Assembly (NCBI GenBank): GCA_020853525.1
Contig: JADYYS010000067.1
Span: 1,319-65,318, forward strand
DNA from: Ardenticatenales bacterium
Lineage (GTDB): Bacteria > Chloroflexota > Anaerolineae > Epilineales > Epilineaceae
Direction of reading: 5' to 3'
DNA length: 64,000 bases
The notes below the pieces were generated by a model, which was not told where the DNA came from, made no database searches, and worked only from the letters and a program-made list of their open reading frames with translations. The translations under genes and the position numbers were made by a program. Below, piece by piece: positions 1 to 45,573 of this stretch. Within the stretch, counting starts at the first letter, position 1. Every line of letters starts with the position of its first letter.

Positions 1-3000
1 GCTGACGGTATACGTGCCGTTCCCGTTGTTCACCGTCGACGTGACGTTCTTCGCCACGCCGATCGCCGGCGCCTCGGCGAACGTCACGGGCGTCGGATCG
101 TTCTCGCCCGGCTCGTTCGCATTGTTGTCGCCGTCAGGATCCGGGTTCGTCCCCGCGTCTGACAGGTCGTTCACCGGCGTCCCGCCCGGGCTCGTGCCCG
201 TGGCCGTCGCCTGGTTGTTGTACGGGCCGAGGTTCGCGCCCGGCGTCACCGTCACGTTGATCGGGATCGTCCCACTGGCTCCGACCGCCAGGCTGTCCGT
301 CCCGGCGAGTACGTTCGTGTCGCCCGCGCCGTTGTAGCCGGCGTTGACCGTGAAGTCGCCGCTGACCGCGCTCACGCCGCCGAACGACGTCGCCCCGGCG
401 AACGTCGCCGCCAGGTTGTCCGTCACCTGTACCGCCGACAACGGCACATCACCGAGGTTCTCGACGACGAGGCTGTAGCTGACGGTATACGTCCCGTTCC
501 CGTTGTTCACCGTCGACGTGACGGTCTTCGCCACGCCGATCGCCGGCGCCTCGGCGAACGTCACGGGCGTCGGGTCGTTCTCGCCCGGCTCGTTCGCGTT
601 GCCGTCGCCGTCCGGATCCGGGTCCGTGCCCGCGTCCGACACGTCGCTCACCGGCGTGCCGGCCGGGCTGGTGCCGTTGGCCGTCGCCTGGTTGTCGTAC
701 GGGCCGAGGTTCGCGCCAGGTGTCACCGTCACGTTGATCGTGATCGTCCCGCTCCCGCCGATCGCCAAAGCGTCGGTCCCGGCGAGCACGTTCGTGTCGC
801 CCGCGCCGTTGAAGCCGGCGTTGACCGTGAAGTCGCCGCTGGCCGCGCTCACCGCGCTGAACGACGTCGCCCCGGCGAACGTCGCCGCCAAGTTGTCCGT
901 CACCTGCACCGCCGACAGCGCCACATCGCCCAGGTTCTCGACGAACAGGCTGTAGCTGACGGTATAGGTCCCGTTCCCATTGTTCACGTTGGACGTGACG
1001 GTCTTGGCGATGCCGATCGCCGGCGCCTCGCCGAACGTCACCGGCGTCGGGTCGTTCTCACCCGGCTCGTTCGGATTGCCGTCGCCGTCCGGATCCGGGT
1101 CCGTCCCCGCATCCGACTCGTCGTTCACCGGCGTCCCGCCCGGGCTCGTGCCCGTGGCCGTCGCCTGGTTGTCGTACGGCCCGAGGTTGGCACCCGGCGT
1201 CACCGTCACGACGAGGGCGATGCTCCCGCTCGCGGCCACTGCGAGGCTGTCCGTGCCGGCGAGAAGGTTAGGATCGGCGTTCCCGTCGTAGCCCGCGTTG
1301 ACGCTGAAGTCACCGCTGTTCACGCTCACGACGCTGAACGACGTCGCGCCGGCGAACGTGGTCGCCAGGTTGTCCGTCACCTGCACCGCCGACAGCGGCA
1401 CGTCGCCCAGGTTCTCTACGAGCAGGCTGTAGCTGACGGTATATGTCCCGTTCCCGTTGTTCACCGTCGACGTCACGCTCTTGGCGATACCGATCACCGG
1501 CGACTCGCCGAACGTCACCGGCGTCGGGTCGTTCTCACCCGGCTCGTCGGCGTTGTTGTCGCCGTCCGGATCCGGGTCGACGCCGTCGTCCGACACGTCG
1601 TTCACTGGCGTCCCGCCCGGGCTCGTGCCCGTGGCCGTCGCCTGGTTGTCGTACGGTCCGAGGTTACCGCCCGGCGTCACGGTCACGACGAGGGCGATGC
1701 TGCCGCTCGCGCCGACCGCCAGCGTGTCCGTCCCGTCGAGGAGGTCCGTGTCCGCGTTGCCGTCGTAGCCCACGTTCTCCGTCAGGCTCGCGCTCGTCAC
1801 GCTCACGACGCTGAACGACGTCGCGCCGGCGAACGTGGTCGCCAGGTTGTCCGTCACCTGCACCGCCGACAGCGGCACGTCACCGAGGTTCTCGACGACG
1901 AGGCTGTAGCTGACGGTGTACGTCCCGTTCCCGTTGTTCACCGTCGACGTGACGCTCTTGGCGATGCCGATCGCCGGCGCCTCGGCGAACGTCACCGGCG
2001 TCGGGTCGTTCTCGCCCGGCTCGTTGGCGTTGTTGTCGCCGTCCGGATCCGGGTTGACGCCGTCATCCGACACGTCGTTCACCGGCGTGCCGCCCGGGCT
2101 CGTGCCCGTGGCCGTCGCCTGGTTGTTGTACGGGCCGAGGTTCGCGCCCGGCGTCACCGTCACGACGAGGGCGATGCTCCCGCTCGCGCCGACCGCCAGC
2201 GCGTCGGTCCCGGCGAGGAGGTTCGTGTCCGCGTTGCCGTCGTAGCCGACGTTCTCCGTCAAGCTCGCGCTCACCACGCTCACGACGCTGAACGACGTCG
2301 CCCCGGCGAACGTCGCCGCCAGGTTGTCCGTCACCTGCACGCCCGACAACGGCACGTCGCCCAGGTTCTCGACACTGAACAGGTACGTCACCGTGTACGT
2401 GCCGTTCCCGTTGTTCACCGTCGACGTGACGGTCTTCGCCACGCCGATCGCCGGCGCCTCGGCAAACGTCACGGGCGTCGGATCGTTCTCGCCCGCCTCG
2501 TTGGCATTGCCGTCGCCATCCGGGTCCGGGTTCGTCCCGTCGTCCGACACGTCGTTCACCGGCGTCCCGGCCGGGCTCGTGCCCGCGGCCGAGGCCAAGT
2601 TGTTGTACGGGCCGAGGTTGGCGCCCGGCGTCACCGTCACGACGAGCGAGATCGCGCCGGAGCCCATCAAGCCGAGGCTGTCGGTTCCCGCCAGAAGGTT
2701 CGGATCGCCGTTGCCGTTGTAGCCCGCGTTCACCGTGAAGTCGCCGCTCGTGACGCTGGTCACGCTGAACGACGTCGCGCCGGCGAACGTGGCTGCCAGG
2801 TTGTCCGTCACCTGCACGCCCGACAGCACCACATCGCCCAGATTCTCGACGACCAGGCTGTAGGTGACCGTGTACGTGCCGTCGCCGTTGTTCACCGTCG
2901 ACGCGACGCTCTTCGCCACACCGATCGACGGAACCTCGACGAACAGGACCGGCGTCGGGTCGTTCTCGCCCGCCTCGTCGGCATTGCCGTCGCCGTCCGG

Positions 3001-3350
3001 GTCAGGATCCGTGCCGTCGTCCGACGTGTCGTCGACGACTGCGTTGATCGGGCTCGTGCCCGTCGCAACGGCGGTGTTGTCGTACGGCCCGAGGTTGGCG
3101 CCCGGCGTGACGGTGACGGTCACGGTGATCGTGCCGACGGCGCCGATCGCCAGGCTGTCCGTGCCGGCAAGGAGGTTGGTGTCAGCATTGCCGTCGTAGC
3201 CCGCGTTGACTGCGAAGTCGACGCTGGTCACGGCGTCGACCGTGAACGAGGTCGCGCCGGCAAACGTGGTCGCCAGGTTGTCCGTCACCTGCACGGCGGA
3301 CAGCGCCACGTCGCCCAGATTCTCGACCTTCAACTCGTACGTGACGGTGT
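1..3350 (-). repeat. Tandem array of about 7 near-identical ~477-bp (159-codon) coding repeats, i.e. DUF11-type domain units inside the giant gene, which probably continue beyond the window start
   Basis: A recurring 45-mer of the form gctgacggtatacgtcccgttcccgttgttcaccgtcgacgtgacg appears near 1, 478, 957, 1435, 1911, 2388 and 2866. The ggcgtcgggtcgttctcgcccggctcgt motif recurs with the same period. The plus-strand ORF-track entries 14..337, 503..955, 980..1291 and so on are antisense reflections of this periodicity. Confidence 0.85.
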
Positions 3351-6300
3351 GGTCGCCGGTGCCGTGGTTGAAGACCATCGTCACGCGCTTGGCGACGCCG
3401 ATCGCCGGGTTCTCGAGCGACTCGATCTCGAAGTCCTGGTCGACGTAGCTGCCGGCCAGCGCTACGGCCAACGTGATGTTGTCCGGATTGCCGCCGTCAC
3501 GGTCAGCCAGGCTCGTGAAACCGAGCGGGTTCGTCTTCGTGACCTGGCACAGGCCGGGCGCCACGCCGGTGAAGGCGTAGTCGCCGCTGGCGTTCGTTGT
3601 CGTGTTCTGCGTGGTGTCGTCACCCGTGCCCAGATAGCCGTCCAGGCCTGCGCAGGTCAGTGTGAGCGCCACGAGCTCGACGGGGATCTCGGTCGGGGGC
3701 TCGGCCAAGCCGTCGCCGTCGGCGTTGTAGACGACGGTGCCGCTGATCGTGGCCGGCTGGTACTGGTAGCCGAAGTCGAGCCCGGTGATGTCGGCGTTGA
3801 CGTTGATCGGCGGCGTCGGCGCTTCGGTCGGTCCGTAGGCCATCGATGGGAGGTCGAGCTCATCGGCGTCCAGCACGGTGCACACGCTGCCGTCGGGCAC
3901 GCCCGCCACGGACCACGCGCCGCCGAATCCCGTGACGGCCATGAACGTACCGGTATCGCACTGCACCGTCACGTCGACCCCGGCGAAGCCTGGCTCGCCG
4001 TCGTCGTTGCTGTTGCCGTTCAAGTCCTCGTACACCCGCCCGCTGAGCGTGCGCAGGATGCCGGGCGGCTGGTAGCCGAAGTCGAGGCCGAGGTCGTCGC
4101 CGCCGCCCGTCACCGTGGCGGAGCCCTCGCCGTCGCAGACCGTGCACGTGCCGGCCTCGTCGGGGTCGGCGGTCTGGACGAAGCCGCCCGGCACGGAGGC
4201 CGCGACGACGCGGACGATGTACGTGGCGTCGGCCAAGCCGACGAACAGGTAGCTGCCGCCGCCGTCCGTCGCCTGGGTGTCGAGCAGCATCGTGCCGGTG
4301 GCGTCGTACAGCTGGACCGTCACGCCGGCCAGGCCGGGCTCGCCCGGGTCCTGCATGCCGTCCCCGTCCGCGTCGAGGAACACGGTGTCGCCGACCGTGC
4401 CGCCGTCGTCCAGGCCGAAGTCGAAGCCGCCCAGTTCCTGACCGGCGGCCAGGAGCGTGTTGTAGAAGGTCGGCGTCGTGGCATCGACCAGCCCGGCCGG
4501 GATGTCGGGGTCCGTAGCGTCATAGCGGATGACGTAGTCGCCGGGCGTCAGGATGAACGTGTACTCGCCGACGCCATCCGTCACCGTCGACGGCTCGCCC
4601 GGGTCGAGCGTACCGTCGTCGTCGAGGTCGATCCAGACCGTCACGTTGGCCAGCACGATGTCGCCGCCGTCCAGTGACCCGCCGTGGTTCACGTCATGGA
4701 AGACGTGGCCCTCGATCTCGCCGGCCTCGATGAAGCCGAAGTCGGCCGTCAGCCGGTCCTCGCCGGCGCCCAGCACGACGGCGATCTCGCTGCCGGTCGT
4801 CGCGACCATGCGCCCGATCTCACCGGCATTCGCGCTCGACGGCGGCGCCGGCACCTGCTGCTCCTCGGCCCGAACGACGTAGTTGCCGGGCGGGAGGTTG
4901 TCGAACAGATAGGCGCCGTTCGCATCGGTCACCGTAACGGCCACGATCGTCTCGCCCGGGTCGATCTCGCCGTTGCCGTCCGCATCCTCGTACAGCACGA
5001 TCGTCGTGTTCGGCGCGCCGCCTTCGCCCCCGTCCTGTACGGTGTCGCCGTCGAGGTCGTACCAGGCGCGGTCGCCGATCGATCCGGACCAGTTGTAGCC
5101 GAAGTCGGCCACGAGGTAGTCGGTGTTCGCCGCCAGCGTAACGTCGTGCGGCTCGGTGCCGCCGACGAGGTCCATCGCAGCGGCCAGCGTCGCCATGCCG
5201 CCGGACGGCGTCGTTACCAGGCTCGCCGCGTCGACGCTGACGAGGAAGTCGCCGGCATAGACGTTGTCGAACAGGTACAGGCCGTCGGCATCCGTCGTCG
5301 TCGTGTCGATGAGGATGTCGGTCGGGTCGATGACCCCGTCATTGTCCAGATCGCGGTACAGGTGGACCGTGATCGACGGCAGGCCGTCCTCGTCGACGTC
5401 CTTGATGCCGTCCTCGTCGGCATCCAGCCAGACGGTGTCGCCGATCGAACTGCCGTCGCTGTTGAAGCCGAAGTCGGCGTCGGTGATCTGCGCCGTCGCC
5501 AGCGTGGCGCCGAGCGTGCGCATGAGGGTCTGCGTCGTTGTCGGGTAGTAGCCGCTCGGATAGGTCGTCGAATCCGTGCGCACGGTGTACATCGTGCTGA
5601 GCGAGAGGCCGGCGATCTGATAGTGCCCGGCGGCGTCGGTGGTGTCGAACGGCTCGCCGCCGTCCCGTACGCCGTCGTTGTCGAGGTCGATCCACACGAT
5701 CACGCCCGCCAGGCCCGGCTCGCCCGCATCCTGCACGCCGTCGCTGTCGACATCGGCCCAGACCCGGTCGCCGATGCTGCCCGTCGTGGCCGTTTCGGCC
5801 GGGTTGCTGGTGGCCAGGAGGGTCGGTCCGTCGAAGAACTCCGCCGTGTTCGTCACGACGTCGACCGTCAGGGGGTCGTTGATCGTGACCTGGAACGAGA
5901 GCTGCGGCGCCACGATGACGCTGTTGGAAGTGGACGACGACCACGTCGTCGACCCGTTCGTCGCGCTGGCGCTGAACGTGAGACCGCCGACCGTCCCGGC
6001 AACGCCGCTGGCCGTACAGCTCCAGGTGAACAAGGCCGACCCATTGGCCGGTACCGTCTGCGATGCCGGCGAAGCGGCGCCGCACGTGGCCGTGGCGCCG
6101 CCGGTCCCGGCCACGGTGAGCGCACCGGGCGCGACCGACGTCACCGCCACGCCCGACGAGTCGGTGAGCGTCATCGCGACGTTCACCGTGTCGCCGCTCT
6201 GGACCAGCGTCGGCCCGGCGGCGATGTTGTTCGTGCCGGTGGGGTTGGCCGGGGGGATGCTCCAGTTGACGGTCAGCGTCGGGCGCCGGGTGGCGGTGCC

Positions 6301-9300
6301 CTCTTCGCTGGCGTAGTACTGGACCTCGCCTGTGTCCGTGCCGGTGGCGAACAGGACCAGACCATTGTTGGGCTGGGCACCGGTGTACCACTGGCTGACC
6401 AGGCTGGTGATGACCGCCGTCTTGCCGCCGGTCGTCGACGGCGTGATCGTGCCTTCCGTCGTCGCGTTGTAGTCGCTGCTGCCGAACACGCCGCCGCCGC
6501 TGGCCCAGTCGATGCCGCCGGCGCCGTCGGGGTCGTTCCAGGTCGTGCTGCCCTCGGTCCACGCCGTGACGACGCGGTGGATCTCATCGACGTGGTTGTT
6601 CTTCTTGGCCCGGACCTCCATGCGCAACGTCGCCTGGGAGATCGTCGCGCCCGCCGGCACCGTGCTGAGGTCGAAGCGCACGAGCGCGTGCCGTTCCTGC
6701 GTAGCCGGGCTCGGCTGGACGCGCAGGCGGTTGTTGGCGCCGGTGTTCGTGTTCGCGTTCGCCTCGTCGATGTCGGCGTCGACGACGCCGCTGTCGCGGA
6801 GGATCGTCGTGCCGGCACAGCCGTTCGGCGTGTACGTGATCACGATCTGCGGTCGTTCGCTGGCGGTCCCGGTGGTGCGCGGTTCCCAGCTCACCGTGTT
6901 CGTGGCTGAGCCGACGGGCCACATCGTCAGGCCGCGGTTCGTGCCGCCGCTCAGCCAGCCGCTCACGACGGTGTCGAGCGCTGCGCCGCTGATGTTGTAC
7001 GTCGTGCCGTTGGTGGTCGGGTTGAACGTGCCGAGGGTTGTCGCGCTGAAATCGCTCGTGCCGAAGTTGCCCGCGGCGCTCAGCCAGTCGTCCGTGCAGT
7101 TCGGGCCTTGCCACGCGGCGCCGTTGCCCGACGAGGCACAGGGGTCGTCGTTGCCGGTGCCCTCGGTGAACGATGTGAGCAGGTCGTGGATCTCGACCTG
7201 CCGGTTGGCGCCGGCGCCGCCGCTCGTCGTCAGGTTGAGCGTCGCGCCGTTGAACGTTGCGCCGGCCGGCAGCGTCGACGCATCGATCGTGAACTGCAGC
7301 AGGCCAACCGCCTTGTTGGCGGCCGACGAGGTGTCGATCGAGGTGTCGGTGCCGTGGTTCTGATCCACATCGGCCTGCTCGAGCCAGGTGTCCTTGGCGG
7401 CGACGATGGCCGTGGTCGTCTGGCACGCAACGGGCGGCGTGCCGCCCTTGAACCCCTCGGTACCGATCGTGTTGCTGCCCAGGTCCCATTGCACGGAGTC
7501 GATCCCGCCGGTCGTCAGCACCGCGTCGTCGTCCTGGTCGACGAACTCGCCGCCGGCGTTCGGGCTCGTCGGGGGCGTATCGACGCCCGTCGTCCCGGCC
7601 GGGATCGTGTCGACGATGACCGCGCTGCTGAGCAGCTCGTTGCCGGGGTAGCGCGGCGTGATGGTGTAGGTCAGCGTGGCGCCGGTGCCGGCGAAGGCGG
7701 TGTCGACCGACTTGGCCAACGACTGGACGAACGGGAAGTCGGCCGTCAGCTCGTCCTCGCCTGCCGACAGGTCGACCGCGATGCGATCGACGACGCCGGC
7801 GTAACCGGCCGGGATGTCGGGATCGCCGCTGTCGATGTCCACGATGTAGTCGCCCGCACCGAGCGTGTCGAACAGGTAGGTGCCGTCCGGACCGGTGACG
7901 GTGGTGGCCAGGAGCGGCTCGCCGGGATCGAGGATGCCGTCGCCGTCCGTGTCCTGGTAGAGGTCGATCGTGACGCCCGAGATGCCGGCCTCGCCGGCGT
8001 CCTTGACACCGTCGCCGTCGTCATCCTGCCAGACCTGGTCGCCGATCGAACCGGGCACTTGGCGCCAGAAGCCGAAGTCCGCCGCCGTGTAGCTGCCGGC
8101 CAGGTTGGCGACGGCATGCGGATCGGACGTGGACGAGACGAAGCTGTCGGGGCTGAAGTAGGCCACGAGATCGGGGTCGGTTTGGACGACATCCACGATG
8201 TAGTCGAGCCCTTCCGCCAGACCGGCAAAGCTATAGAGGCCGCTGCCGTCCGTCGTCGTCGTAGCGACGAGAAGGTCGGTGCCGACGTCGATGACGCCGT
8301 CGCCGTCGGTGTCCTCGTACAGGTTCACCGAGACGTTGGCGATGCCGACATCGCCCGCGCCGGGGTTGTACATACCGTCGTTGCCGAGATCCTCGAACAC
8401 GAGGTCGCCGATGCTGCCGGTGCCGGCCGGGTCGTAGCCGAAGTCGATCGTGTTGTTGATCTCGTCCGTCGCCAGCGTGACGGATCGCGGCTCGGACGGC
8501 GTCGTCAGCGTGTAGCCGGCCGGGACGCCGGACGCCACGTCGACGCAGTAGCTGCCGGCGGTCAAGCCGGCGAAGCCGTAGGCGCCGTCGGCGTCGGTGT
8601 TCGTCGTCTGCAGCACGGGCCCGCTGGGCGGGCAGCTGCCGCCGTACAGGTTGAGAGTGACGCTCGGAATGCCTTCCTCGCCCGCGTCTTGGACGCCGTC
8701 GCCATCCCAGTCGCGCCAAACGAGATCGCCGATCTTGGCGCCGCCGACAGTGACACAGCCGTCCGAACCGGTCGTCGTCGGCACGCCGTTCTGCGTCGTC
8801 GTGTAGACGTTGCAGTAGGCACCCGGTGGGAGGTTGAGCGCGCTCTGGGCGGTGAACACGAGCACGAGCTGGTTGCCGGCGTTCACCGCCGCCGGCACGG
8901 TGAACATCGGCTGGTTGGGGTTGGCGTTGTTGACGGTCGTCGAGCCGGTGGCGTTGGCGCCGTTGACGGTGACGCTGACGAGGGCGGTGTAGCTGAAGCC
9001 GGTCGGCAGGTACTCCTGGATCGTCACCGGGCTGCCGGTCGGGCCGGTGCCGATGTTCTTCACCAACAGGGTGTAGTTGACCGACCCGCCCGGGGCAATG
9101 CTCGTCGGGCTGACCGACTTCGTGTTGTTGAGGATCGGAATCGCCCCGACACAGATCGTCTCGGTCGAGCGCTGCGGTCCGAGTTGGTTCGAGGTGACGG
9201 TTACGATGTTGTCGAGGCAGCCCGAGCCCGTGGCCTTGACGGTGACGAGCGACTCGAACTTCTGGCCGGGCTGCAACGTCCCGACATTCCAGACCAGGGG

Positions 9301-10893
9301 GTTCGGGCCGCTGTTCTGGGCCGGGACGGCGCTGAGGAACTGGACGCCGCTGGGCAGCTGGTCGCTGACGACGACGTTGGTGAGCGTCGTCGTGCCCAGG
9401 TTGTAGAACTTCACCTTGTACTGGAACGTGTCGCCCACCTTCACCGCCGCCCGGTCCGTCGGCTTGCCGATGCCGGCGCAGCCGTTCCATGTGATCTCGG
9501 TCGGCTCGTAATAGCGCCAGAGGTGGTCTTTGCCGTTGTCCGTGCCGCCGGCGTCGCCGCCGAACGTGTCCGCGTGGAAGACCGGGCAGCCGCTGCCGTC
9601 CAGGATCGCCGACGTGTCGTTGATCTTGAACCTCACCAGGGCATACTCGGGCCGGAACGCCGTCAACTGGCCGACCGCGAAGCGGATGGCCTTGGGGCTG
9701 GTCGTATCCGACTGGGAGACCGTCGAGGGGAGCGGCAGAGCCGCGCCGACATTGCTGCCGTCGACGTTCGCGAATCCGAGCACGGAACTCACCAGCCCCG
9801 GCTGGTCCTTGGCGATCCGGCTGCCGATGTACTTGATGCGGTTCCACGGGCCGATGTCGCTGTTGCTCATCGACGCCCGCATGTCGGCAGCGGACTTGGC
9901 GCTGGCCTGCCAGGCATTCCAGTCGAAGTTCCACTTGTAGCCGCTCTCCGGGCCGGCGACGCCGCTGGCGAAGCCCCACGGCGAGTTGCCGCGTCCGTCG
10001 CCGTAGTCGACGACGGGCACGGAGCCGGCGGCGCCGAAGGTCGTGGCACTCGCGCCCCATGCCAGCAGCTGCCCGGCGTCCCACTTGTTGCACGGCACGA
10101 CGACGTCGCCGCTGTTGTTCGTGATCGTCTTGCCCATGACCCCCGGATAGAACACCTTGGAGCCGCAGCCGCTCACCGGATCGCCGGTAAAGGCCTGCCA
10201 GCTGCCGTATGCGGTGTCGGGGTCGGTGGAATAGAAGATGCCGGTGTCGCCGTACACGCCGGCGATCGTCCCGCGGTGGAGGCCGGTGGCGGACACGACC
10301 GGGTTGTCGGTGACGCCGAGCACGTTCGGGCCCACAGCCGGGAGCCCGATGAGCTGCGCGGTCGTCTTCGCCCCGATCGGCCCGGCGCCGATGGCAATGG
10401 GCGACTGGCCCTTCATCGGCACGGTGTCATAGCCGCCCGTGCCGTCGGGGAGCAGATAGGCGGCGTTCGTGACCTGGACGCCGTTGGGGACGTAGAAGTC
10501 GACATGGCCGCCGACGCCCGTCGTCGTGCCGTCGCGCGGGACGACCTTGATGATGAGGCCGACCTCGTCGTTCACCTGCAGGATCGGCGTCCCGGGCACC
10601 CAGCCGCCGTTGATGCGGGTGTCGAGCAGCGTCTGGCTGGCCGGATCGAGGAACGCGTACACCATCCGCGTCTGCAGGTTGTGGGCCGACACGGGCGACG
10701 GAGCCTCGGAAGACATCCGGCCGAGGGCCACGATGGACAACAGGACGACCAACGCTGCGCGGCGCCGGGGCGTGAATCGACGGCGAATGGATCCAACCAC
10801 CAATTCGCGCGCCGATTCACGCGCGCCCGCGGAAGGTTCAGCCACGCTGGGCCGCTGCAGGAGTTGGTACCACGGACGGTTGACCCGCTTCAT
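1..10893 (-). CDS. Giant secreted repeat protein (partial; 3' end beyond the window start, >3600 aa in window). It has a signal peptide, a unique ~500-aa N-terminal region, SdrD B-like/CnaB-type folds, and at least 7 tandem DUF11/TIGR01451-type conserved-repeat domains joined by Ca-binding-like [19 protein letters not shown] linkers
   Basis: My own minus-strand translation from the ATG at 10893 reads MKRVNRPWYQLL..RRRAALVVLLSIVALG (signal-peptide-like) and continues with no stop to position 1. An alternative in-frame ATG lies at 10908. A GAAGGA Shine-Dalgarno-like motif precedes the 10893 ATG. The DUF11-like motif FQYKVKFYNLGTTTLTNVVVSDQLPSGVQF is present. The SdrD/CnaB motif YLFDNLPPGNYVVR is encoded near 4850-4900. 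The 1-3350 segment translates to repeated units of the form [67 protein letters not shown]. The gene is missing from the ORF track because no stop codon falls inside the window. The long plus-strand ORFs over this span are Arg/Ala/Gly-rich antisense artifacts. Confidence 0.8.
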   Translation of the reverse strand, partial: MKRVNRPWYQLLQRPSVAEPSAGARESARELVVGSIRRRFTPRRRAALVVLLSIVALGRMSSEAPSPVSAHNLQTRMVYAFLDPASQTLLDTRINGGWVPGTPILQVNDEVGLIIKVVPRDGTTTGVGGHVDFYVPNGVQVTNAAYLLPDGTGGYDTVPMKGQSPIAIGAGPIGAKTTAQLIGLPAVGPNVLGVTDNPVVSATGLHRGTIAGVYGDTGIFYSTDPDTAYGSWQAFTGDPVSGCGSKVFYPGVMGKTITNNSGDVVVPCNKWDAGQLLAWGASATTFGAAGSVPVVDYGDGRGNSPWGFASGVAGPESGYKWNFDWNAWQASAKSAADMRASMSNSDIGPWNRIKYIGSRIAKDQPGLVSSVLGFANVDGSNVGAALPLPSTVSQSDTTSPKAIRFAVGQLTAFRPEYALVRFKINDTSAILDGSGCPVFHADTFGGDAGGTDNGKDHLWRYYEPTEITWNGCAGIGKPTDRAAVKVGDTFQYKVKFYNLGTTTLTNVVVSDQLPSGVQFLSAVPAQNSGPNPLVWNVGTLQPGQKFESLVTVKATGSGCLDNIVTVTSNQLGPQRSTETICVGAIPILNNTKSVSPTSIAPGGSVNYTLLVKNIGTGPTGSPVTIQEYLPTGFSYTALVSVTVNGANATGSTTVNNANPNQPMFTVPAAVNAGNQLVLVFTAQSALNLPPGAYCNVYTTTQNGVPTTTGSDGCVTVGGAKIGDLVWRDWDGDGVQDAGEEGIPSVTLNLYGGSCPPSGPVLQTTNTDADGAYGFAGLTAGSYCVDVASGVPAGYTLTTPSEPRSVTLATDEINNTIDFGYDPAGTGSIGDLVFEDLGNDGMYNPGAGDVGIANVSVNLYEDTDGDGVIDVGTDLLVATTTTDGSGLYSFAGLAEGLDYIVDVVQTDPDLVAYFSPDSFVSSTSDPHAVANLAGSYTAADFGFWRQVPGSIGDQVWQDDDGDGVKDAGEAGISGVTIDLYQDTDGDGILDPGEPLLATTVTGPDGTYLFDTLGAGDYIVDIDSGDPDIPAGYAGVVDRIAVDLSAGEDELTADFPFVQSLAKSVDTAFAGTGATLTYTITPRYPGNELLSSAVIVDTIPAGTTGVDTPPTSPNAGGEFVDQDDDAVLTTGGIDSVQWDLGSNTIGTEGFKGGTPPVACQTTTAIVAAKDTWLEQADVDQNHGTDTSIDTSSAANKAVGLLQFTIDASTLPAGATFNGATLNLTTSGGAGANRQVEIHDLLTSFTEGTGNDDPCASSGNGAAWQGPNCTDDWLSAAGNFGTSDFSATTLGTFNPTTNGTTYNISGAALDTVVSGWLSGGTNRGLTMWPVGSATNTVSWEPRTTGTASERPQIVITYTPNGCAGTTILRDSGVVDADIDEANANTNTGANNRLRVQPSPATQERHALVRFDLSTVPAGATISQATLRMEVRAKKNNHVDEIHRVVTAWTEGSTTWNDPDGAGGIDWASGGGVFGSSDYNATTEGTITPSTTGGKTAVITSLVSQWYTGAQPNNGLVLFATGTDTGEVQYYASEEGTATRRPTLTVNWSIPPANPTGTNNIAAGPTLVQSGDTVNVAMTLTDSSGVAVTSVAPGALTVAGTGGATATCGAASPASQTVPANGSALFTWSCTASGVAGTVGGLTFSASATNGSTTWSSSTSNSVIVAPQLSFQVTINDPLTVDVVTNTAEFFDGPTLLATSNPAETATTGSIGDRVWADVDSDGVQDAGEPGLAGVIVWIDLDNDGVRDGGEPFDTTDAAGHYQIAGLSLSTMYTVRTDSTTYPSGYYPTTTQTLMRTLGATLATAQITDADFGFNSDGSSIGDTVWLDADEDGIKDVDEDGLPSITVHLYRDLDNDGVIDPTDILIDTTTTDADGLYLFDNVYAGDFLVSVDAASLVTTPSGGMATLAAAMDLVGGTEPHDVTLAANTDYLVADFGYNWSGSIGDRAWYDLDGDTVQDGGEGGAPNTTIVLYEDADGNGEIDPGETIVAVTVTDANGAYLFDNLPPGNYVVRAEEQQVPAPPSSANAGEIGRMVATTGSEIAVVLGAGEDRLTADFGFIEAGEIEGHVFHDVNHGGSLDGGDIVLANVTVWIDLDDDGTLDPGEPSTVTDGVGEYTFILTPGDYVIRYDATDPDIPAGLVDATTPTFYNTLLAAGQELGGFDFGLDDGGTVGDTVFLDADGDGMQDPGEPGLAGVTVQLYDATGTMLLDTQATDGGGSYLFVGLADATYIVRVVAASVPGGFVQTADPDEAGTCTVCDGEGSATVTGGGDDLGLDFGYQPPGILRTLSGRVYEDLNGNSNDDGEPGFAGVDVTVQCDTGTFMAVTGFGGAWSVAGVPDGSVCTVLDADELDLPSMAYGPTEAPTPPINVNADITGLDFGYQYQPATISGTVVYNADGDGLAEPPTEIPVELVALTLTCAGLDGYLGTGDDTTQNTTTNASGDYAFTGVAPGLCQVTKTNPLGFTSLADRDGGNPDNITLAVALAGSYVDQDFEIESLENPAIGVAKRVTMVFNHGTGDHTVTYELKVENLGDVALSAVQVTDNLATTFAGATSFTVDAVTSVDFAVNAGYDGNADTNLLAGTDSLAIGAVGTITVTVTVTPGANLGPYDNTAVATGTSPINAVVDDTSDDGTDPDPDGDGNADEAGENDPTPVLFVEVPSIGVAKSVASTVNNGDGTYTVTYSLVVENLGDVVLSGVQVTDNLAATFAGATSFSVTSVTSGDFTVNAGYNGNGDPNLLAGTDSLGLMGSGAISLVVTVTPGANLGPYNNLASAAGTSPAGTPVNDVSDDGTNPDPDGDGNANEAGENDPTPVTFAEAPAIGVAKTVTSTVNNGNGTYTVTYLFSVENLGDVPLSGVQVTDNLAATFAGATSFSVVSVVSASLTENVGYDGNADTNLLAGTDALAVGASGSIALVVTVTPGANLGPYNNQATATGTSPGGTPVNDVSDDGVNPDPDGDNNANEPGENDPTPVTFAEAPAIGIAKSVTSTVNNGNGTYTVSYSLVVENLGDVPLSAVQVTDNLATTFAGATSFSVVSVTSASLTENVGYDGNADTDLLDGTDTLAVGASGSIALVVTVTPGGNLGPYDNQATATGTSPGGTPVNDVSDDGVDPDPDGDNNADEPGENDPTPVTFGESPVIGIAKSVTSTVNNGNGTYTVSYSLLVENLGDVPLSAVQVTDNLATTFAGATSFSVVSVNSGDFSVNAGYDGNADPNLLAGTDSLAVAASGSIALVVTVTPGANLGPYDNQATATGTSPGGTPVNDESDAGTDPDPDGDGNPNEPGENDPTPVTFGEAPAIGIAKTVTSNVNNGNGTYTVSYSLFVENLGDVALSAVQVTDNLAATFAGATSFSAVSAASGDFTVNAGFNGAGDTNVLAGTDALAIGGSGTITINVTVTPGANLGPYDNQATANGTSPAGTPVSDVSDAGTDPDPDGDGNANEPGENDPTPVTFAEAPAIGVAKTVTSTVNNGNGTYTVSYSLVVENLGDVPLSAVQVTDNLAATFAGATSFGGVSAVSGDFTVNAGYNGAGDTNVLAGTDSLAVGASGTIPINVTVTPGANLGPYNNQATATGTSPGGTPVNDLSDAGTNPDPDGDNNANEPGENDPTPVTFAEAPAIGVAKNVTSTVNNGNGTYTVS

Positions 10894-10934
10894 GTTGACG
10901 TCCTTCATCTGTTCGCCGAAACAAGACAGCATGA

Positions 10935-10959
10935 GGCAACGGGCGCATTGCCCGTTGCC
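10935..10959 (-). terminator. Perfect 10-bp stem / 5-nt loop hairpin (GGCAACGGGC-gcatt-GCCCGTTGCC), about 25 nt upstream of the start codon of giant gene 1 and about 275 nt downstream of giant gene 2. It could be an intrinsic terminator or attenuator separating the two giant genes
   Basis: The stem-loop is read directly from the sequence. On the minus strand it is followed by the U-containing stretch UCAUGCUGUCUUGUUUCGG. Confidence 0.35.
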
Positions 10960-11233
10960 TGAAAGATCGGCAGCGACGACCGGTTGTGCATCAGGATTTC
11001 GGATGACGTGGCCGGCGTGATGATCAGCGACGAGGCCTGAGCCCACTGGTGGCTCGGCACACTTAGAACGCGCGCATTTGCCTGTAGGACACGGGCGCGC
11101 TCAGGTTATTATTGGCTACCTCTCATCTCCAACCTTAAAGTTGCCGATTCCTAAGACATCTCTAACGGCGCCGGCGCCAAAATCGTGCCCGCCGCGGACG
11201 TCGGTTGTCGGTCGTGCAGCCTGGCTGGCGGCT

Positions 11234-14200
11234 CTACAACGGCAGCGCGTTGGGATCCCCCATCTGCGGCGCACCGATGTACGGCGGCGGCCAGTCCACC
11301 GGCGGCGGGATGATCCCCTCCCGCCAGCAGCCGGCAGCGTCGAAGATCTCCTCCCACGTCAGCGCCGGCGGCTCATCCTCGTCGAACGGCCCGGGCGCGG
11401 CGCGGGTGCAGCCGTAGAACAGCAGCTCGTTGGACATCGAGCGCCAGTTCAGCGTCAACAGGTACTGCTGGCCGTCCGGGACGACGAGCTCCGTGTAGCG
11501 GCCCGGCGTCACCTGGGTCTGATGCGTCTCCCAGCCGTACCGCATTCGCCCGTCCGGTCCGACGGACGCGCGGTCGTTGTAGGTCTCCCGCAGCTCGGTG
11601 CCGAAGCGGGGCTCGTCCGCCTCGGCGCGGATGCTGACCGCCAGCGGCCCGGCGGCCGCCAACTCTCCGACGCACGGACCGAACGTGTCGACGTCCTGGA
11701 AGTCGGCCGCGGGCAGGCGCTGGACGTCGACGGCGATCGTGTGATCCGTGTTGAACGGCGGCAGGACGGAGATCTGCGGCGGCTGGCCGCCCAGGAAATA
11801 GCCCTGCTGGAACAGCGAGTCCTGTGGGTTGAAGAAGTTGCCCTTCGGCACCGGCGTGCGGAGCGTCAGGAAGGCGAAGCCCTCGTTGCACGTCGCCGGG
11901 TCGGCCGGGTTCGTACCGGGCAGCGGCTGCGTCATGAGCGCCACGACGTTGTACTCGTGGCCGTCGACGTAGAACCGTTTGAGGTACCACGGATCGCCCG
12001 GGAAGAGGTCGTGCGCGCCGGCACCGTTGTCGATCGCCGAGTGCGTCGCGCCGAGCGCGCGGCCGACCGTCACCGACACGGACTCGCCGTCCGGGGCAAC
12101 GTCCTCGACGAACAGGAACCACGCGCCGTCCAGGCTGCCGAGGTTCGTCGCGCCGGGCGGCACGATCCGCACCCGGTCCTGGAAACGGTCGACGACGACG
12201 ACGCTGCCGAGCGGCACGGTCTGGATGCCGCGGACGGGCTCGGGGCGGGCGCTGCCGACGGTGCCGCCGGTGAACCAGAACCGGAACTGGGCGCTCAGGC
12301 CGGGCGTGACGTTCTCGAGCACCGCCATGTGGTCGAAGACCATCACGCTATCGGTGACCCCCGCGGTCAGCGGATCGCGGTCGAGGGTGACGCTCTGGAT
12401 CGCGAACACCGCCAGCTCGTTCCCGTTCAGCGCCACGCAGTCCTCGTCGAGGTCGTCCAGCGCGCCGTCGCCGTCGAACTCGACGACCGGTCCGGCGAGC
12501 GGGAGCGGTGCACCGGGGCCCTGCGGGCGGTTCGCCTGCCAGGCGAAGTCGAAGTAGTCGTTGATCGTCGCCTCGGTCTCGAGCGTCACCGGCTCCGGCA
12601 CGCCGTCGAAGTTCGCGTCGAACGTCGTCAAGCCGTGGCCGAACTGGCCGCCGGGCGGCAGTGTACCGCCGGCGTTGGGCTTGGGCAGCTCGAGGGCGCG
12701 CGTGCCCATCGGCAGCGCCACGCGGCTCGAGCCGGCCGGCACGGCGACCGGGTTGTCCGTCGTGTCCATCATGAGGTAGGTGTACTCTTGGACGACGGCC
12801 TGGAACGTCAGGTCGCTGTGGCAGTCCAGGTCCTGGCGGATCTTCGTGATGTAGTCCGGTTGATACCACAGCCGCTGGTAGACCTTCTGGCGCGCGTTCT
12901 GGCCGTCGTTCGAGATCCCGCGGTAGAGGTCGACGAGGTCCTCGCCGAAGTTGCGGTACTCGTCGAGGTAGGCCGGGTTGAACGTCAGCGAGTCGTGGCG
13001 CGGCGCGTCGGGCGCCTGCGGGTTGAACGGGGCGAACGGGTCGGTGTAGGGCGGCACCTCGACCGGATAGCCGGCGATGTCCGTCGTGACCGTGATGTCG
13101 CCCGCGCCGCTCAGCAGCGCGGCCCGGGATGCCGCGCCGTCGCACGCCAAGTCGTCCACGCAGACCGGCAGGCCGCCGTAGATCCGGACCCCTTCGTCGC
13201 CCGTGAAGAGCTTTTCTCGCTCGTCGGGGTCGAAAGCGAAGCTCGCGCGGCGGGGCAGGCCGTAGTTGCCGGTCAGCGGGTCGAACGCGGTCTCGTCGGC
13301 GGTGAGGTCGGGCGGGGGCGGCGGCATCTCGTCCGGGACCGGGCCGTCCGGCATCGTCCATTGGCGCCAGCGCGCCGTCGGGTTGAGGAAGCCGCTCGTC
13401 ACGTCGTAGCGGTCGGGGTCGCACGCGACCGGGCTGCCGCCGGGGGCGGCGAGGTCCGGCAGCGCGAACTCGGTGAAGTGCCACGGCTGGGTGAAGATCC
13501 GCTCGTTGTAGAAGAACGCGTCCGGCACGGACGGGTCCACGATGCACGCCGAATCGTCGAAGCGCCGTGCGCCGTACTTCTCGGCCAGCTGGCCGACGAA
13601 CGCCGGGTTCGTGTCCTCCTCGACGTACAGCCAGTGGCTCGATCGGAAGCCGGCGCCCGCGCCGAGGCTGTACGGGCCGACCGGGCTGGCCGGGTCGCGG
13701 CCGACGTACGTCCCGCCGTCGCCGGCGCCCAGCACCGGCGGCACCGGCCCGATCGGGCCGCCCATGTACAGGACCCTCGGCCGGTCGATCGGATCGTCGG
13801 CCGTCGGCGCCGGGCACGCGTCGATCGCGTCCAGCACGGCCACGTCCTCGAGGATCGTGTGCTCGTGGTTGAACGGCGGCGGGAGCGGCAGGGCGCGGTT
13901 CGGACCGTAGGCCTGCAGGCGCACGGAGTGCTGCTCGATCGTCACCGGCACCTTGGGCACCGGCGCGCGGAGCGTGATGTACTGCATCGCGTTCGCACCG
14001 CACGTCATGATCGCCACGACGTTGTACTCGTGGCCGTCCACGTACAGGCGCTTGAGGAACCACGGCCCGCCGGCGCTGCGGTTCGCGACGTTGGCGATGC
14101 GCTCCATGCTGGCGCACGGCGCGCCGAGCGCCCGGCCGACGGTGACGGTGGCCGTGACGTCCGCCGTGTCCACGCCGTGAACGGCGATGAACCACCCGCC

Positions 14201-17200
14201 GACGGGCACCTGCCCGAGGCTGCTGCCGCCCGGCACGACGAGCTGCACCGGACCGACCTCCCCCGCCAGCGCCGCGCCGCCGACGCCGATCGACGCCGTC
14301 GCCACGAGCCGCGGGACGAGGTCGCCCGTGTAGAAGATCCGCACCGTTGCCGAACTGCTCGAGACCCCCTGCACGGTGACGAAGTGGTCGAGGAACTGCA
14401 GCCGCTGGTTGCGGCCGATCTCGGCCGCGTCGGTGTGCAGCACGACCATCTCGTCGCACGAGAGCGGCGCGCCGTCGCCGTCGATGTCGTCGACGAGGCC
14501 GTCGCCGTCGAAGTCCAGCGTCAGGCCGAGGTCCGCCGCCAGCGTCGCCTCGCTGGCCACGTTCACCATGTCGAACGTGCCGTCGAAGTTCGCGTCGAGG
14601 CTCGTCAGGCCGTAGCCGACGGTTGGTCCGGCGGCACTCGTCTCGGATGCGCCGATGCCGACCGGGAACACGATCCGCGAGCCGCCGGCCGTCGCGCACG
14701 CCGGGCGCGGGGCGGAGTCGTCGAGGCGATCGGGCGACGGGTCGGGCTGCGGCACGTCGTTGTCAAGGACGACATAGGTCAGTTCGGTCATGATCGCCGG
14801 GTACCACTCGTCGCGCGCCGATGGCGCCGGGTTGACGGGCGCGTCGGGGCGGCCGTCGTCCGGCAGGCCCGTGTTCGTCAGGCAGTCGTCGGCGTTCAGA
14901 TCCTTGTCCAGCCGCGTCGGCTCGTACCAGTGCCGCAGCCAGACCTTCTCGGACCCGTTCACGCCGCCGACGCGGATATTCGTGTTCGCGCTGACCTCGT
15001 CGGCGCCGGTGGCGCAGCCCCAAGCCGCGCCGAGGCCCGGCTCGTTCAGCCGCTCCGAGATCCAGGCCGGGTTCCACGTGACGAAGTCCTGCTCGGGCGC
15101 CTCGCCGGACAGCGGGTTGAAGGGCCCCTCGGGATCGGTGTACGGCGCGTCCTCGGGCACGCGCCCCGTCAGCGGGTCGACGAGGCTGTTCGAACCGGCC
15201 GACGCACGCCGGTTGCCCTCGCCGCTGACGACGGCGTTGCAGACGACGCTCAGGCCGTGGACGCGGATCGTCGGCAGGTCGGCGGTGCCGCGGCGGTTCA
15301 CGTAGAGGTCGTCCGGATCGGTCGGGTCGTAGAAGACCTTGACGCGCGACGTGCCGTCCAGCGAGACGTCGCCGAACTCGACGACCTCGTCGTTGCCCGC
15401 CGTGACCGTGACCGTGACGGCGTTCGGCGTCGTCGAGATGTAACCGTTCGGATCCGATTCGGAGACGACGTAGCTGCCGGGCGGTACGTCGGTGAACACG
15501 TAGTTGGCGGCCGCGTCCGTCACGGCGGTGGCGCCGTTGGACAGCCGGACGACAACGCCCGGGATCCCGACCTCGCCCGGATCGCGGACGGTGTCGCGGT
15601 CGATGTCCTCCCAGACCATGCCGTGCACCATGCCGCCCGCCGGCACGCCCGGCCGGTCGCCGAAGTTCACGACCGCCGCGGCGCCGGGTCCGAGAACGAC
15701 GGCGACGACGTTCGGTGTCGTCGAGGCGAAGCCCGGCAGATCCGTCTCCGTCACGGTGTAGTTGCCGGGAACGAGGTTGAGGAACGCGTACCCGCCCGTG
15801 CCGTTCGTCACCCGCACCGCACCGTTGGACAGCGTCACCGTCACACCGGGCAGCCGCGCTTCGCCGAGGTCGATGACGCCGTCGCCGTCCGTGTCGTTCC
15901 AGACCGTGCCCGAGATGCCGGCCGGCGCCGGCGTCGGCGTCGGGGTGCGCGTGGCGGTCGGCGTCGGCGTGTTCGTCGGGGTCGGCGTCAGCGTGCGGGT
16001 GGGCGTGTTCGTCGGGGTGGCGGTCGCGGTTGCCGTGTTGGAAGGCGTCGACGTCGGCGTGTTCGTGGGCGTGTCGGTGGGTGTCGACGTGGGCGTGGCC
16101 GTCGGCGTGGATGTCGACGTCGCGGTGCGCGTCGATGTCGCCGTGCGCGTCGGCGTGTCGGTCGGCGTGTTCGTCGGCGACGGAGTCGACGTGGCCGTGC
16201 TCGTCGATGTCGGCGTGTTTGTGCGCGTGCTCGTCGCCGTCGGCGTCGGGGTCGGCGGGTCGAACTGGACGGGCGTCGGATCGTTCTCGCCGGGCTCGTC
16301 GGCGTTGCCGTCGCCGTCCGGATCGGGGTTCGTGCCGTCGTCCGAGGCGTCGCTCGCGATCGTTCCCGCCGGGCTCGTCGCCGAAGCGATGGCGCTGTTC
16401 AGATGCGGGCCGAGCGCCGTGCCGGGCATGACGGTCACGACGAGCGTGATCGTCCCGGTGCCGAGGAGCGGCAGCGTGTCGGTTCCGCTCAACAGCAGGG
16501 TGTCGACGTCGCCGTCGTACAGCGGGTTCTCGGTGAACGCCGCGCTCGTCACGCTGTCGACGGTAAACGATGTCACGCCGCCGAACGTCGCGGCCAGGTC
16601 GTCCGTCACCTGGAGGCCGGTCAGCACGACATCGCCCAGGTTCTCGACGACGAGGTCGTACGTCACGGTCGACGTGCCGTTCATGTTGTTCACGAGGCTC
16701 GTCACGCGCTTGGCGACGCCGATGGACGGCACCTCGACGAACTGGACGGGCGTCGGATCGTTCTCCCCGGGCTCGTCCGCGTTGCCGTCGCCGTCGGGGT
16801 CGGGCTCCGTGCCGTTGTCGGACGGGTCGGTGACGGTCGGGTTCCCGGTGCTCTGGCCGCTGCCGATGGCCGAGTTGAAACATGGGCCGAGGTTGGCGCC
16901 GGGCGTGACGGTGACGCTCACCTGGATCGTGCCCGTCGCGCCGACGGCCAGCGTGTCGGTGCCGTCCAACAGGTCGGTGTCCGTGTCGCCGTCGTAGCCG
17001 GCGTTCACCGTGAAGTCGGCGCTCGAGGTGCCGTCGACGGTGAACGACGTCGCGCCGGCGAATGTCGCCGCCAGGTCGTCGACGACTTGGACGTTCGTCA
17101 GGGCGACATCGCCCAGGTTCTCGACCGTGAGGGTGTAGTCCACGGTGTGGGTGCCGTTGCCGTGGTTGAACACCATCGTCACGGTCTTGGCGACGCCGAT

Positions 17201-18205
17201 CGCCGGGTTCGTCGTCGGCGTGGCGGTCGGGGTCTGTGTCGCCGTCGGCGTGGGCGTCGCCGTGCTCGTCGCCGTTTCCGTCGGCGTCGAGGTCGACGTG
17301 GATGTCGGCGTCGCCGTCGGTGTCGGGGTGGCGACGACGATCACGACGAACACGCTGGCGTCCGGTCGGTCGCAGTTCGGCGCGGCGTCGAGGTTGGGGT
17401 CGTGGTTGTCGGTCGCCCAAAGCAGGTTCAGCGCGCTTGGGTCGCCGATCGCCGCGCGGGAGACGTACATGTCGACGAAGTCGCCCGTGACGGCGTAACC
17501 GACGGTGCTGTTCGTCGTGTTGCCCTGTGGCCCGCCGGCCCCGGCCGTTCCCGTGCCGAGCACGCGCTGCCAGTCGGCGCTGCCGATCGCGTTGTTCGTG
17601 TAATCGGGCGGATTGTTCGAACCCCATCGGGCGGAGAAGCCGGCGTTCAGGAGATCGTCCATGAACGTCAGCTCGCCCAGCTGGTTTCGGCCGAGCGTGC
17701 AGTCCGCCGGGACGCAGAGGTCCTCGAGGTTCAGCAGGTACTCGGCGTCGTTGATGTTGCCGCCGGAGATCGTGGCGTCGCTGCCGACGGTGTCCAGGAA
17801 CCACTTGTAACGGGCCTGGCCCTGGCTGTCGGCGCTCGGCCAGCCCGCCGGATCGATGTTCTCCATCCGCAGGTAGAGGTACGCGCTGTCGACCGCGTAG
17901 AACGTCGAGATCACGTCGCGGTGGTCGTTGCAGCCGCTCTCCGCCGCGTCGACGACGATCGGCGTCCACGTCGTCGGCCACGCCGCAAACGCCGCGGCCC
18001 GCCGGATCGCGTTCGGTGCCGGCCGCGGACGGCCGTGCTGCCCGTTCGAGGTGGCGATCCCTTGCGCCGATCGTGAACCGACCACCGCCCAAAGGCGCTG
18101 GCCTGCAATCCCGACGACGAGTGCCAGGACGAGCGCCGCGAGCGCGGCGAACGGAGCGGCGGGTGACGGCAGGCGAAAAGCGGGGCGCTGGTCGCGCTTG
18201 ACCAT
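11234..18205 (-). CDS. Giant secreted multi-domain protein (2323 aa). Order of parts: a signal peptide; a conserved ~230-aa N-terminal domain shared with the protein at 53625..56042; a Thr/Pro-rich linker; 2 DUF11/TIGR01451-type repeats; a long Thr/Pro linker; 2 SdrD/CnaB-like domains; and a ~1350-aa internally duplicated module of unknown function
   Basis: The ORF-track protein begins [26 protein letters not shown] (signal). It contains [32 protein letters not shown] and [21 protein letters not shown] twice. It contains a long [17 protein letters not shown]... linker. It contains [35 protein letters not shown] (CnaB/SdrD-like). The C-terminal 1350 aa are homologous to the N-terminal module of the next gene. 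The overlapping plus-strand ORF 11078..18076 is a low-complexity antisense artifact. Confidence 0.85.
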
Positions 18206-28809: not shown

Positions 28810-28892
28810 CTGTGGCTCCTCCGGTTCGAAGAAGGCCCGTCTGGCCCTGGGGGGGACGGATCGGGGCGGGACCTCAAGCGCGCACAAACACG

Positions 28893-40594: not shown

Positions 40595-40746
40595 GCGTCG
40601 GCGCACAACAGCGCCGAACGACGGAATAGCGGAATCGGCTTTCGGCTTGGCGGCGACGCCTTGTCCGGCAACGATAGCAACGAGATCGATCGCCATCGCG
40701 TCGCCGCACGTTCGGGCTGCGCGATGTGGCAAGCAGGAGGGGTCCG

Positions 40747-40956
40747 ATGCCCAAGATGAAGACGCACAAGTCGACGAAGCGCCGCTTCAAGGTGACCGGC
40801 ACCGGCAAGCTCATGCGCACGAAGATCGGCAAGAGCCACCTCCGTCGCAAGAAGCCGTCGCGCACGCGGCGGCTGTTCGACGAGTACTTGGTGGTCACCG
40901 ACAAGGCAACGATCAAGCGAGTCCGGCGCTTGGCGCCGATTCTCTGGAAGCGGTAA
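40747..40956 (+). CDS. rpmI: 50S ribosomal protein L35
   Basis: The protein starts MPKMKTHKSTKRRFKVTGTGKLMRTK... An AGGAGG Shine-Dalgarno-like motif lies at 40733-40738. Confidence 0.9.
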   Translation: MPKMKTHKSTKRRFKVTGTGKLMRTKIGKSHLRRKKPSRTRRLFDEYLVVTDKATIKRVRRLAPILWKR

Positions 40957-40968
40957 GAGGAGCTTACG

Positions 40969-41616: not shown

Positions 41617-41742
41617 GCCGCCGGCAGACCGCGCGGGGACTCTGCAGCCCCTGACGCAAGAACGCCGTCGCGTGTGATGTGCGGGTACGGATCTGTCGAA
41701 AGCGGATCCGAAACCGGGTCTGTGGGGATCAGTTGGAATTGG

Positions 41743-41779
41743 AGGGGCGCCCAAGTCTGGGCGCCCCTTCTTTCGTTGC
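41743..41779 (+). terminator. Rho-independent terminator after rplT (AGGGGCGCCCA-agtc-TGGGCGCCCCT + TCTTTCGTT)
   Basis: The perfect 11-bp stem followed by a T-rich tract is read from the sequence. Confidence 0.6.
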
Positions 41780-41934
41780 TTTCGTCGGCCCGGACGCGCG
41801 GGTGCGACCCGCACCGGCGCACCGTCGTATACTCCGCCCGGCGTCGCGATCTGCCGCGACGCATCACCGTCCCCACCCCAAGGAGGTCGAGCGATCCGGC
41901 CACCGCCCGGCGGCGCGCCCGGATCGCGGTTGTC

Positions 41935-43526: not shown

Positions 43527-43538
43527 GGGCGGACGGCA

Positions 43539-45540: not shown

Positions 45541-45573
45541 CTTCGATCGAGCGCCGACGACCGCGATCCGACC

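Follow-up and report, generated by a model that had tools for sequence, protein, structure and literature searches.

The window analysed here is a stretch of 64,000 nucleotides (nt) of contig JADYYS010000067.1 from an Ardenticatenales bacterium, an uncultured member of the Anaerolineae (Chloroflexota), and it begins within a tandem array of 477-bp coding units, each encoding one module of 159 residues, that belongs to a giant gene on the minus strand (gene 1). In our assessment, this is very probably an ordinary and old array, in which CLIPPER_2 stalk domains of a giant surface protein are repeated in tandem and the interior of which was partly homogenised in the past. In the corresponding model, the modules (at least 7.1) would contribute a segment to the rod-like stalk of a secreted or surface-exposed, fibrillar-adhesin-like protein, where each module would be locked by an isopeptide bond and probably stiffened by calcium, and the length of the stalk would be set by the number of copies.

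Organization of the tandem array

Tandem Repeats Finder detected one array at window positions 1-3327 (period 477, 7.0 copies, 85% matches, 1% indels, score 4149), which the codon register extends to 1-3402, i.e., seven full units plus 63 nt from the start of an eighth. The exact period of 477 bp (159 codons) is kept throughout, with no indels between units, and the motif IG[VI]AK recurs every 159 codons along the array. These results bear out an earlier note on this DNA, which had described a strict 477-bp coding period and seven or more copies in an array leaving the window edge. The only frame that reads through the array lies on the minus strand and is open from 11100 to base 1 (3700 codons), where it exits the window; the array is thus the furthest-downstream visible part of gene 1, with the stop codon beyond the window. 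Several plus-strand open reading frames (ORFs) overlap the array and gene 1 (a 1504-codon frame at 163-4674 and others in 1-11000), and were dismissed as antisense artefacts of GC-rich coding because every domain match falls on the minus frame. The units, numbered in the direction of translation, are as follows (L002 denotes the array locus of the nearest relative, presented below):

U1: 3402-2926, minus strand; diverged edge unit, 72-76% identical to every other unit at the nt level, and the orthologue of L002 unit 1
U2: 2925-2449, minus strand; positional orthologue of unit 2 of L002 (80% amino acid identity)
U3: 2448-1972, minus strand; 90.1% identical to U4 at the nt level, and sharing an uninterrupted identical stretch of 75 nt with U7
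U4: 1971-1495, minus strand; mosaic, with a U5-like first third and a U3-like remainder
U5: 1494-1018, minus strand; the unit taken for structure prediction (DUF7507 at 33.6 bits over residues 2-125; model confidence 96.7)
U6: 1017-541, minus strand; closest unit to U7
U7: 540-64, minus strand; matches the module hidden Markov model over positions 1-159 (279.5 bits), nearest unit U6 (89.3% nt identity)
U8: 63-1, minus strand; partial, first 21 codons, in register with U7

The visible segment of U8 is 96.8% identical to U7 over its 63 nt, while the next-best pair in the same segment reaches 93.7%, which suggests that units past the window edge may be more alike than those within it.

Family and predicted structure of the module

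Pfam assigned the units to DUF7507 (PF24346), with the whole protein scoring 159.1 bits over eight stretches and a single unit scoring 33.6 bits against a cut-off of 27, in an alignment that runs from residue 2 to residue 125 and covers positions 5-104 of the 105 in the profile. A survey published in 2025 renamed this family CLIPPER_2 and described it as CnaA-like, with a predicted Lys-Asp-Asn intramolecular isopeptide bond, and as often forming tandem arrays in fibrillar-adhesin stalks, with DUF11 and SdrD_B in the same set (PMC12617251). Both of the latter are present in gene 1. The residues K5, D41, and N109 are invariant in nine out of nine modules in the window, and across 536 modules from 118 diverse proteins the three positions are conserved as K in 93%, D or E in 97%, and N in 96%. 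In the reference triad (Lys72, Asp112, and Asn152, with residue 65 as the first of the domain; PMC12617251), the lysine corresponds to profile position 8, as does K5, while D41 and N109 were matched by spacing only. From this pattern, an intramolecular isopeptide bond between Lys5 and Asn109 is predicted.

Structure prediction with AlphaFold2, using an alignment of 62 sequences, produced an all-beta model of U5 with a predicted local distance difference test (pLDDT) score of 96.7 and a predicted template modelling (pTM) score of 0.90. This run superseded an earlier one based on the nine window modules only, which had reached a pLDDT of 59 and returned meaningless Foldseek matches. When the new model was compared to the PDB with Foldseek, isopeptide pilin domains (BcpA, SpaD, and LrpA) were among the best matches, with a probability of 1.00 and TM-scores of 0.40-0.48. 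Residues 126-159 of the module form a 34-residue acidic extension that carries the sequence DPDPDG and that is itself predicted with a pLDDT of at least 94 up to approximately residue 150. We take DPDPDG to fit the DxDxDG calcium-binding motif, and the extension probably binds calcium. The module including its acidic extension thus combines a very confident predicted fold with the lack of a solved structure, and would be a sensible choice for structural studies of isopeptide domains.

Fibrillar adhesins are long proteins with a stalk of tandem domains, and gene 1 encodes more than 3631 visible residues with DUF11, nine SdrD_B, and at least seven DUF7507 domains. A surface location is suggested by an N-terminal hydrophobic segment together with this domain repertoire and the literature. 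Several observations weigh against such an interpretation. The hydrophobic segment was seen in the translation and is a reading by eye, and since the C-terminus and any anchor lie beyond the window, surface attachment is putative. The matches to CnaA-type pilin folds are moderate (TM-score at most 0.48), the CLIPPER structure 9IFR fell outside the top 50, and searches of PDB sequences with two profiles (A1 and A2) found no solved structure with a significant match. Moreover, the acidic extension (126-159) matches no Pfam family.

Similarity between units in relation to codon bias

The earlier note had called the units near-identical, whereas the pairwise nt identity among U1-U7 ranges from 0.72 to 0.90 (U1 vs the rest 0.72-0.76; among U2-U7 0.80-0.90) and the amino acid identity from 0.69 to 0.88. 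For adjacent pairs from U2 to U7, the amino acid identity is 80.5, 88.1, 86.2, 81.8, and 88.1%, respectively, compared to 70.4% for U1-U2. At the nt level, adjacent units average 0.865 and more distant ones ~0.83, with the units at the 5′ edge being the most diverged. In register, uninterrupted identity extends over at most 85 nt (U4/U5), followed by 75 nt (U3/U7), and over 18-43 nt in most pairs. The 43-mer quoted in the earlier note has a single exact occurrence (481-523), with three further copies at one or two mismatches. At up to three mismatches it has four matches, vs none expected from 100 shuffles. Every k-mer of at least 99 nt is unique within the visible array, and 15% of the 31-mers are non-unique.

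The frame of gene 1 has a GC content at third codon positions (GC3) of 0.93, which leaves synonymous sites little freedom, and we therefore compared the units to a codon-bias null, for which 500 back-translations of the seven protein units were drawn from the codon frequencies of gene 3 and of gene 1 outside its repeats. The null yields an nt identity of 71-80% and a mean longest identical run of 19-27 nt (maximum 33-65). Against this baseline, all pairs within U3-U7 have an nt identity above the maximum of the 500 simulations, and the 85-nt and 75-nt runs are longer than in any of them. Where residues are identical, U3-U7 use the same codon in a fraction of 0.77-0.87, vs 0.61 expected from codon usage. 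U2 lies slightly above the null, while U1 lies at the null with respect to each other unit (0.72-0.76 observed, 0.71-0.73 simulated) and resembles the others at the protein level only. Similarity restricted to the protein level is what the earlier note had named as grounds to reject its claim, and unit-by-unit comparison shows that this applies to U1 and does not apply to U3-U7. More generally, an nt identity of ~75% and identical runs of 20-30 nt carry no signal of recent duplication at a GC3 of 0.93, and a codon-bias null is needed at this baseline before concerted evolution is invoked.

Mosaicism, age, and selection

A Sawyer-type permutation of polymorphic sites gave P < 0.0005 for the SSCF statistic, for U1-7, U2-7, and U3-7 alike. 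The mosaic structure is exemplified by U4, which is nearest to U5 in its first third (94%) and nearest to U3 in the other two thirds (92-94%), a pattern that indicates past unequal crossing-over or gene conversion. Synonymous divergence (dS, NG86) is 0.22-0.43 within U3-U7, 0.44-0.52 for U2 vs the rest, and 0.51-0.74 for U1 vs the rest, while the non-repeat part of gene 1 differs from its orthologue in the nearest genome by a dS of 0.45. Since the dS of the closest pair (0.22) is half of this between-species value, the last homogenisation events are old, and date to roughly half to the whole of one between-species divergence. The ratio of nonsynonymous to synonymous divergence (dN/dS) between units is 0.24-0.49, with values of 0.24-0.43 within U3-U7, which indicates purifying selection on each unit.

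The nearest relative was found in a scan of one genome per species, which retrieved 76 module-encoding loci, and is the uncultured Anaerolineales metagenome-assembled genome (MAG) CAZYVI01. On its contig 11 (L002) lies an orthologue of gene 1 that is collinear with it and 83.6% identical over 2845 residues, as well as the orthologue of the neighbouring gene 2 with its two modules (L006). The L002 contig stops 2.6 units into its own array, and the first 94 codons of U3 align with the partial third unit of this orthologue. In a neighbour-joining tree of units, U1 grouped with L002 unit 1 and U2 with L002 unit 2, while U3-U7 of the window grouped together; in the same tree, the two gene 2 modules paired with the two L006 modules, and the four-unit arrays of L004 and L005 (two species) were one-to-one orthologous. 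As U1 and U2 have one-to-one orthologues in the relative, the array is older than the species split; its edges are stable and its interior has been partly homogenised within the lineage. The recent expansion proposed earlier is thus not supported, in view of both the unit dS (0.22-0.74) and the orthology of U1 and U2, whereas the proposed gene conversion or concerted evolution stands as past exchange among U3-U7, the last events of which are old. In the history that we favour, tandem duplication would have built the array, with at least the first two or three units predating the split from the nearest sequenced species, after which the interior (U3-U7) would have been partly homogenised via unequal crossing-over or gene conversion; since the last exchanges, purifying selection would have maintained every unit.

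Distribution of the module and its arrays

The module is widespread: at E ≤ 1e-3 its profile matches 2835 representative protein clusters, of which 805 remain at E ≤ 1e-30, and single proteins contain up to 41 modules. Complete arrays elsewhere contain six units (L001, with Pro/Thr linkers on either side), four (L004), and two (gene 2). Chloroflexota, Bacteroidota, and Gammaproteobacteria all have arrays of the same module with a period of 474-483 bp, reaching ~21-22 copies with 88-94% matches in Lewinellaceae and 14 copies in a Gammaproteobacteria MAG. One Lewinellaceae locus holds 21.9 copies of 483 bp at 94% matches, and Gammaproteobacteria MAG loci show a two-unit super-repeat of 948 bp at 85-89%. 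The larger or more homogeneous arrays in other phyla, which are better candidates for a stalk of variable length than the array in the window, are located at:

L065: 5676-16280
L040: 85-9963
L009: 5261-12230
L013: 7157-11048

Closer to the species itself, a metagenome scan with the 250 residues directly upstream of the array returned a best match of 49% identity and no same-species locus, and when a single unit was used to search for homologues, the matches were limited to 13 short proteins with one module each, of at most 60% identity, and included no same-species array. Logan contigs of 1.7-5.9 kb (L080-L083; SRR11294019, SRR11294022, SRR11294028, and SRR11294031) are 100% identical to the window within 40001-45910, which indicates that the same strain is present in several samples of one project; they include the DUF3137 gene of the window, and all lie far from the array. 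Of the proteins looked up by exact match, DUF3137 alone had a record, whereas gene 2, ThrRS, and the ADP-ribosylglycohydrolase had none. In CAZYVI01, array-internal contig breaks were observed in L002 (9524-10759, contig 11) and L003 (5-1648, contig 14). That contig 11 ends and contig 14 begins inside module arrays shows that such arrays break short-read assemblies. In L003, ~26 residues (module positions 74-99) have been lost in frame from the last unit.

Alternative explanations for the array

Similarity between units could also persist without any exchange of DNA, in a static and ancient array where protein constraint and the extreme codon bias at third positions account for everything. Back-translation alone does yield 71-80% nt identity with runs of 19-27 nt on average, and U1 lies at the baseline against all other units; nevertheless, U3-U7 depart from this expectation in their same-codon fraction (0.77-0.87 vs 0.61), in identities above the maximum of 500 simulations, in the 85- and 75-nt runs that no simulation produced, and in the mosaicism detected by site permutation (P < 0.0005), which makes a wholly static array very unlikely. 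An assembler that created or mis-ordered the tandem copies is an explanation to which we give hardly any credence. Repetitive genes are prone to mis-assembly, the window starts within the array, 15% of the array 31-mers are non-unique, and the related MAG contigs (L002 and L003) end or start inside such arrays; yet the seven units are all distinct, the 3700-codon frame is unbroken, k-mers of 99 nt or longer are all unique, and U1, U2, and the start of U3 occur in the same order in an independently assembled orthologue, the latter two observations making mis-assembly of the visible part unlikely.

A further explanation is that of a Periscope-type or contingency locus, in which ongoing intragenic recombination would alter the copy number between close strains and thereby tune the length of the stalk. 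This would agree with units of more than 50 residues whose U2-U7 neighbours, at 80.5-88% amino acid identity, are just at the Periscope screening threshold, as well as with mosaic tracts of 53-85 identical nt, the greater likeness of neighbours than of distant units (0.865 vs ~0.83), and the 96.8% identity of U8 to U7 over 63 nt, which leaves room for more similar units beyond the edge. Copy numbers of 2, 4, 6, and at least 7.1 across paralogues and species, and the break of the orthologue’s contig within its array, point in the same direction. We nonetheless consider it unlikely, given that the DNA of the units differs by 10-28%, that a dS of at least 0.22 amounts to half or more of the between-species divergence, that the edge units are one-to-one orthologous with those of the relative, and that the four-unit array of L004 and L005 is conserved one-to-one across two species. 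Extreme length variation is found mainly at the highest repeat identity (PMC8201768), which argues against rapid variation in the window array. A combined proposal, that the module represents a widespread, uncharacterised CLIPPER_2 sub-type, whose isopeptide-locked Ig domain would be joined to an ordered, calcium-binding DxDxDG extension, and that the array may still vary in length between strains of this lineage in the Periscope manner via recombination within identical tracts of 50-85 nt, is in our view unlikely. If the array did vary between strains, an environmental bacterium that is not a pathogen would possess a variable stalk of the Periscope type, and more similar units past the window edge would fit such a scenario. 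The old, partly homogenised CLIPPER_2 array thus remains the explanation that we prefer.

Gene 1 and neighbouring genes

The rest of gene 1 and the adjacent gene 2 have the following features:

Gene 1 remainder: 3403-10893, minus strand; ~2497 N-terminal residues with DUF11, nine SdrD_B, and two CBM96/DNRLRE stretches (Pfam, NCBIfam)
Gene 2: 11234-18205, minus strand; 2323 amino acids, two 159-residue modules with Pro/Thr-rich linkers on either side
Gene 2 modules: 16247-17200, minus strand; paralogues of the array module, orthologous to the two L006 modules

The start of gene 1, as read from the translation, is at 10893 (MKRVN) or 10908 (MKDVN). Its ~400 N-terminal residues are conserved and match no Pfam family, and the only adhesive-type matches in the visible part of the gene are the CBM96/DNRLRE stretches, which are of a carbohydrate-binding type. 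The first module of gene 2 resembles U1 (the ‘MVFNHG’ type), and the Pro/Thr-coding tracts of gene 2 (~15895-16271 and 17200-17336) consist of DNA with a 12-nt periodicity.

In both gene 2 and L003, the array gives way to a Pro/Thr linker, which precedes two SdrD_B domains and a conserved ~1400-residue region, and this layout suggests that the array of gene 1 may likewise be internal instead of at the 3′ end, where the earlier note had placed it. The C-terminal region of L003 is 78% identical to gene 2, and L003 could either supply the C-terminal half that is missing from the orthologue of gene 1 or, equally, be another paralogue. The ~1400 C-terminal residues of gene 2 (11237-15300, minus strand) are paralogous to the ~1400 N-terminal residues of gene 3 (24700-28700, minus strand), with the corresponding DNA (12602-14203 vs 25927-27528) showing 78-83% nt identity in patches. 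Each of these regions is internally duplicated, with two copies of a motif starting GPW[FW]LKR[FL], and Pfam matches were absent from both; the region is also found after the L003 array, followed by a gene 3-like copy. It is a large conserved domain in a cluster of giant paralogues. Gene 3 itself (~3466 amino acids, 18487-28887, minus strand) contains 12 DUF11 (CLIPPER) stretches (936 bits, period 369-387 bp) in an array at ~20100-24400, an FN3 match, and dockerin-like NLFDLV repeats in its C-terminal region, the latter noted by eye. On the downstream side of the giant genes, the segment from 29173 to 49260 is ordinary chromosome and encodes, among others, a cNMP-binding/bPH_2 protein, a MarR-LMWPc fusion, UvrC, threonyl-tRNA synthetase, LemA, DUF3137, and a HisKA_3 histidine kinase.

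Comparison with known systems

Classic contingency loci, to which the earlier note had assigned the array, share with it the presence of repetitive DNA inside a surface-protein gene. They are, however, built from short, near-perfect repeats that shift the reading frame or the spacing of a promoter, whereas the units in the window are 477 bp long and 10-28% diverged, have 72-90% nt identity with a longest identical run of 85 nt, and stay in frame when their copy number changes. Repeats that are this long, in frame, and diverged are ill-suited to slippage or recombination at high frequency and provide no on-off switch for the gene, so that the assignment does not hold. A closer parallel is provided by the Periscope Proteins, which include Sgo_0707 with its SHIRT repeats, SasG/Aap, Rib, Esp, and CdrA, and for which candidates were screened as repeats of more than 50 residues with at least 80% identity (PMC8201768). 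In these proteins, as in gene 1, long in-frame DNA repeats each encode a folded stalk domain, and the identity of adjacent domains in the window (80-88%) far exceeds the <50% that is usual in multidomain proteins. U2-U7 fall within the size and identity limits of the screen at the lower limit only, and U1-U2 (70.4%) falls below them; compared to the SHIRT repeats, which are 82-100% identical and vary from 3 to 14 copies between strains, the array lies at the bottom of the Periscope identity range. The B repeats of the staphylococcal MSCRAMM adhesins SdrD and SdrC are likewise tandem Ig-like stalk domains with acidic calcium-binding motifs, and gene 1 contains nine SdrD_B domains of its own; in contrast, the 477-bp units are DUF7507 and not SdrD_B, and the visible part has no LPXTG anchor or Ser-Asp repeat.

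The array is most similar to CLIPPER_2 (PF24346) and to CLIPPER (DUF11, PF01345; crystal structure 9IFR), the CnaA-like domains for which isopeptide bonds have been predicted or shown (PMC12617251). It shares with CLIPPER_2 a Pfam score above the gathering threshold, the Lys-Asp-Asn triad, a predicted all-beta Ig-like sandwich, and a tandem arrangement in a very long protein alongside DUF11 and SdrD_B. It differs in that the module is ~20 residues longer than the profile (124 residues on 100 profile positions) and adds the conserved 34-residue acidic DxDxDG extension, and in that its host is an uncultured environmental Chloroflexota and not a host-associated bacterium. The locus therefore offers a well-resolved CLIPPER_2 stalk array from an uncultured Anaerolineae with the usual pattern of diverged edge units and a partly homogenised interior, and the array is a further member of the known CLIPPER_2 stalk-array class that raises no new question.

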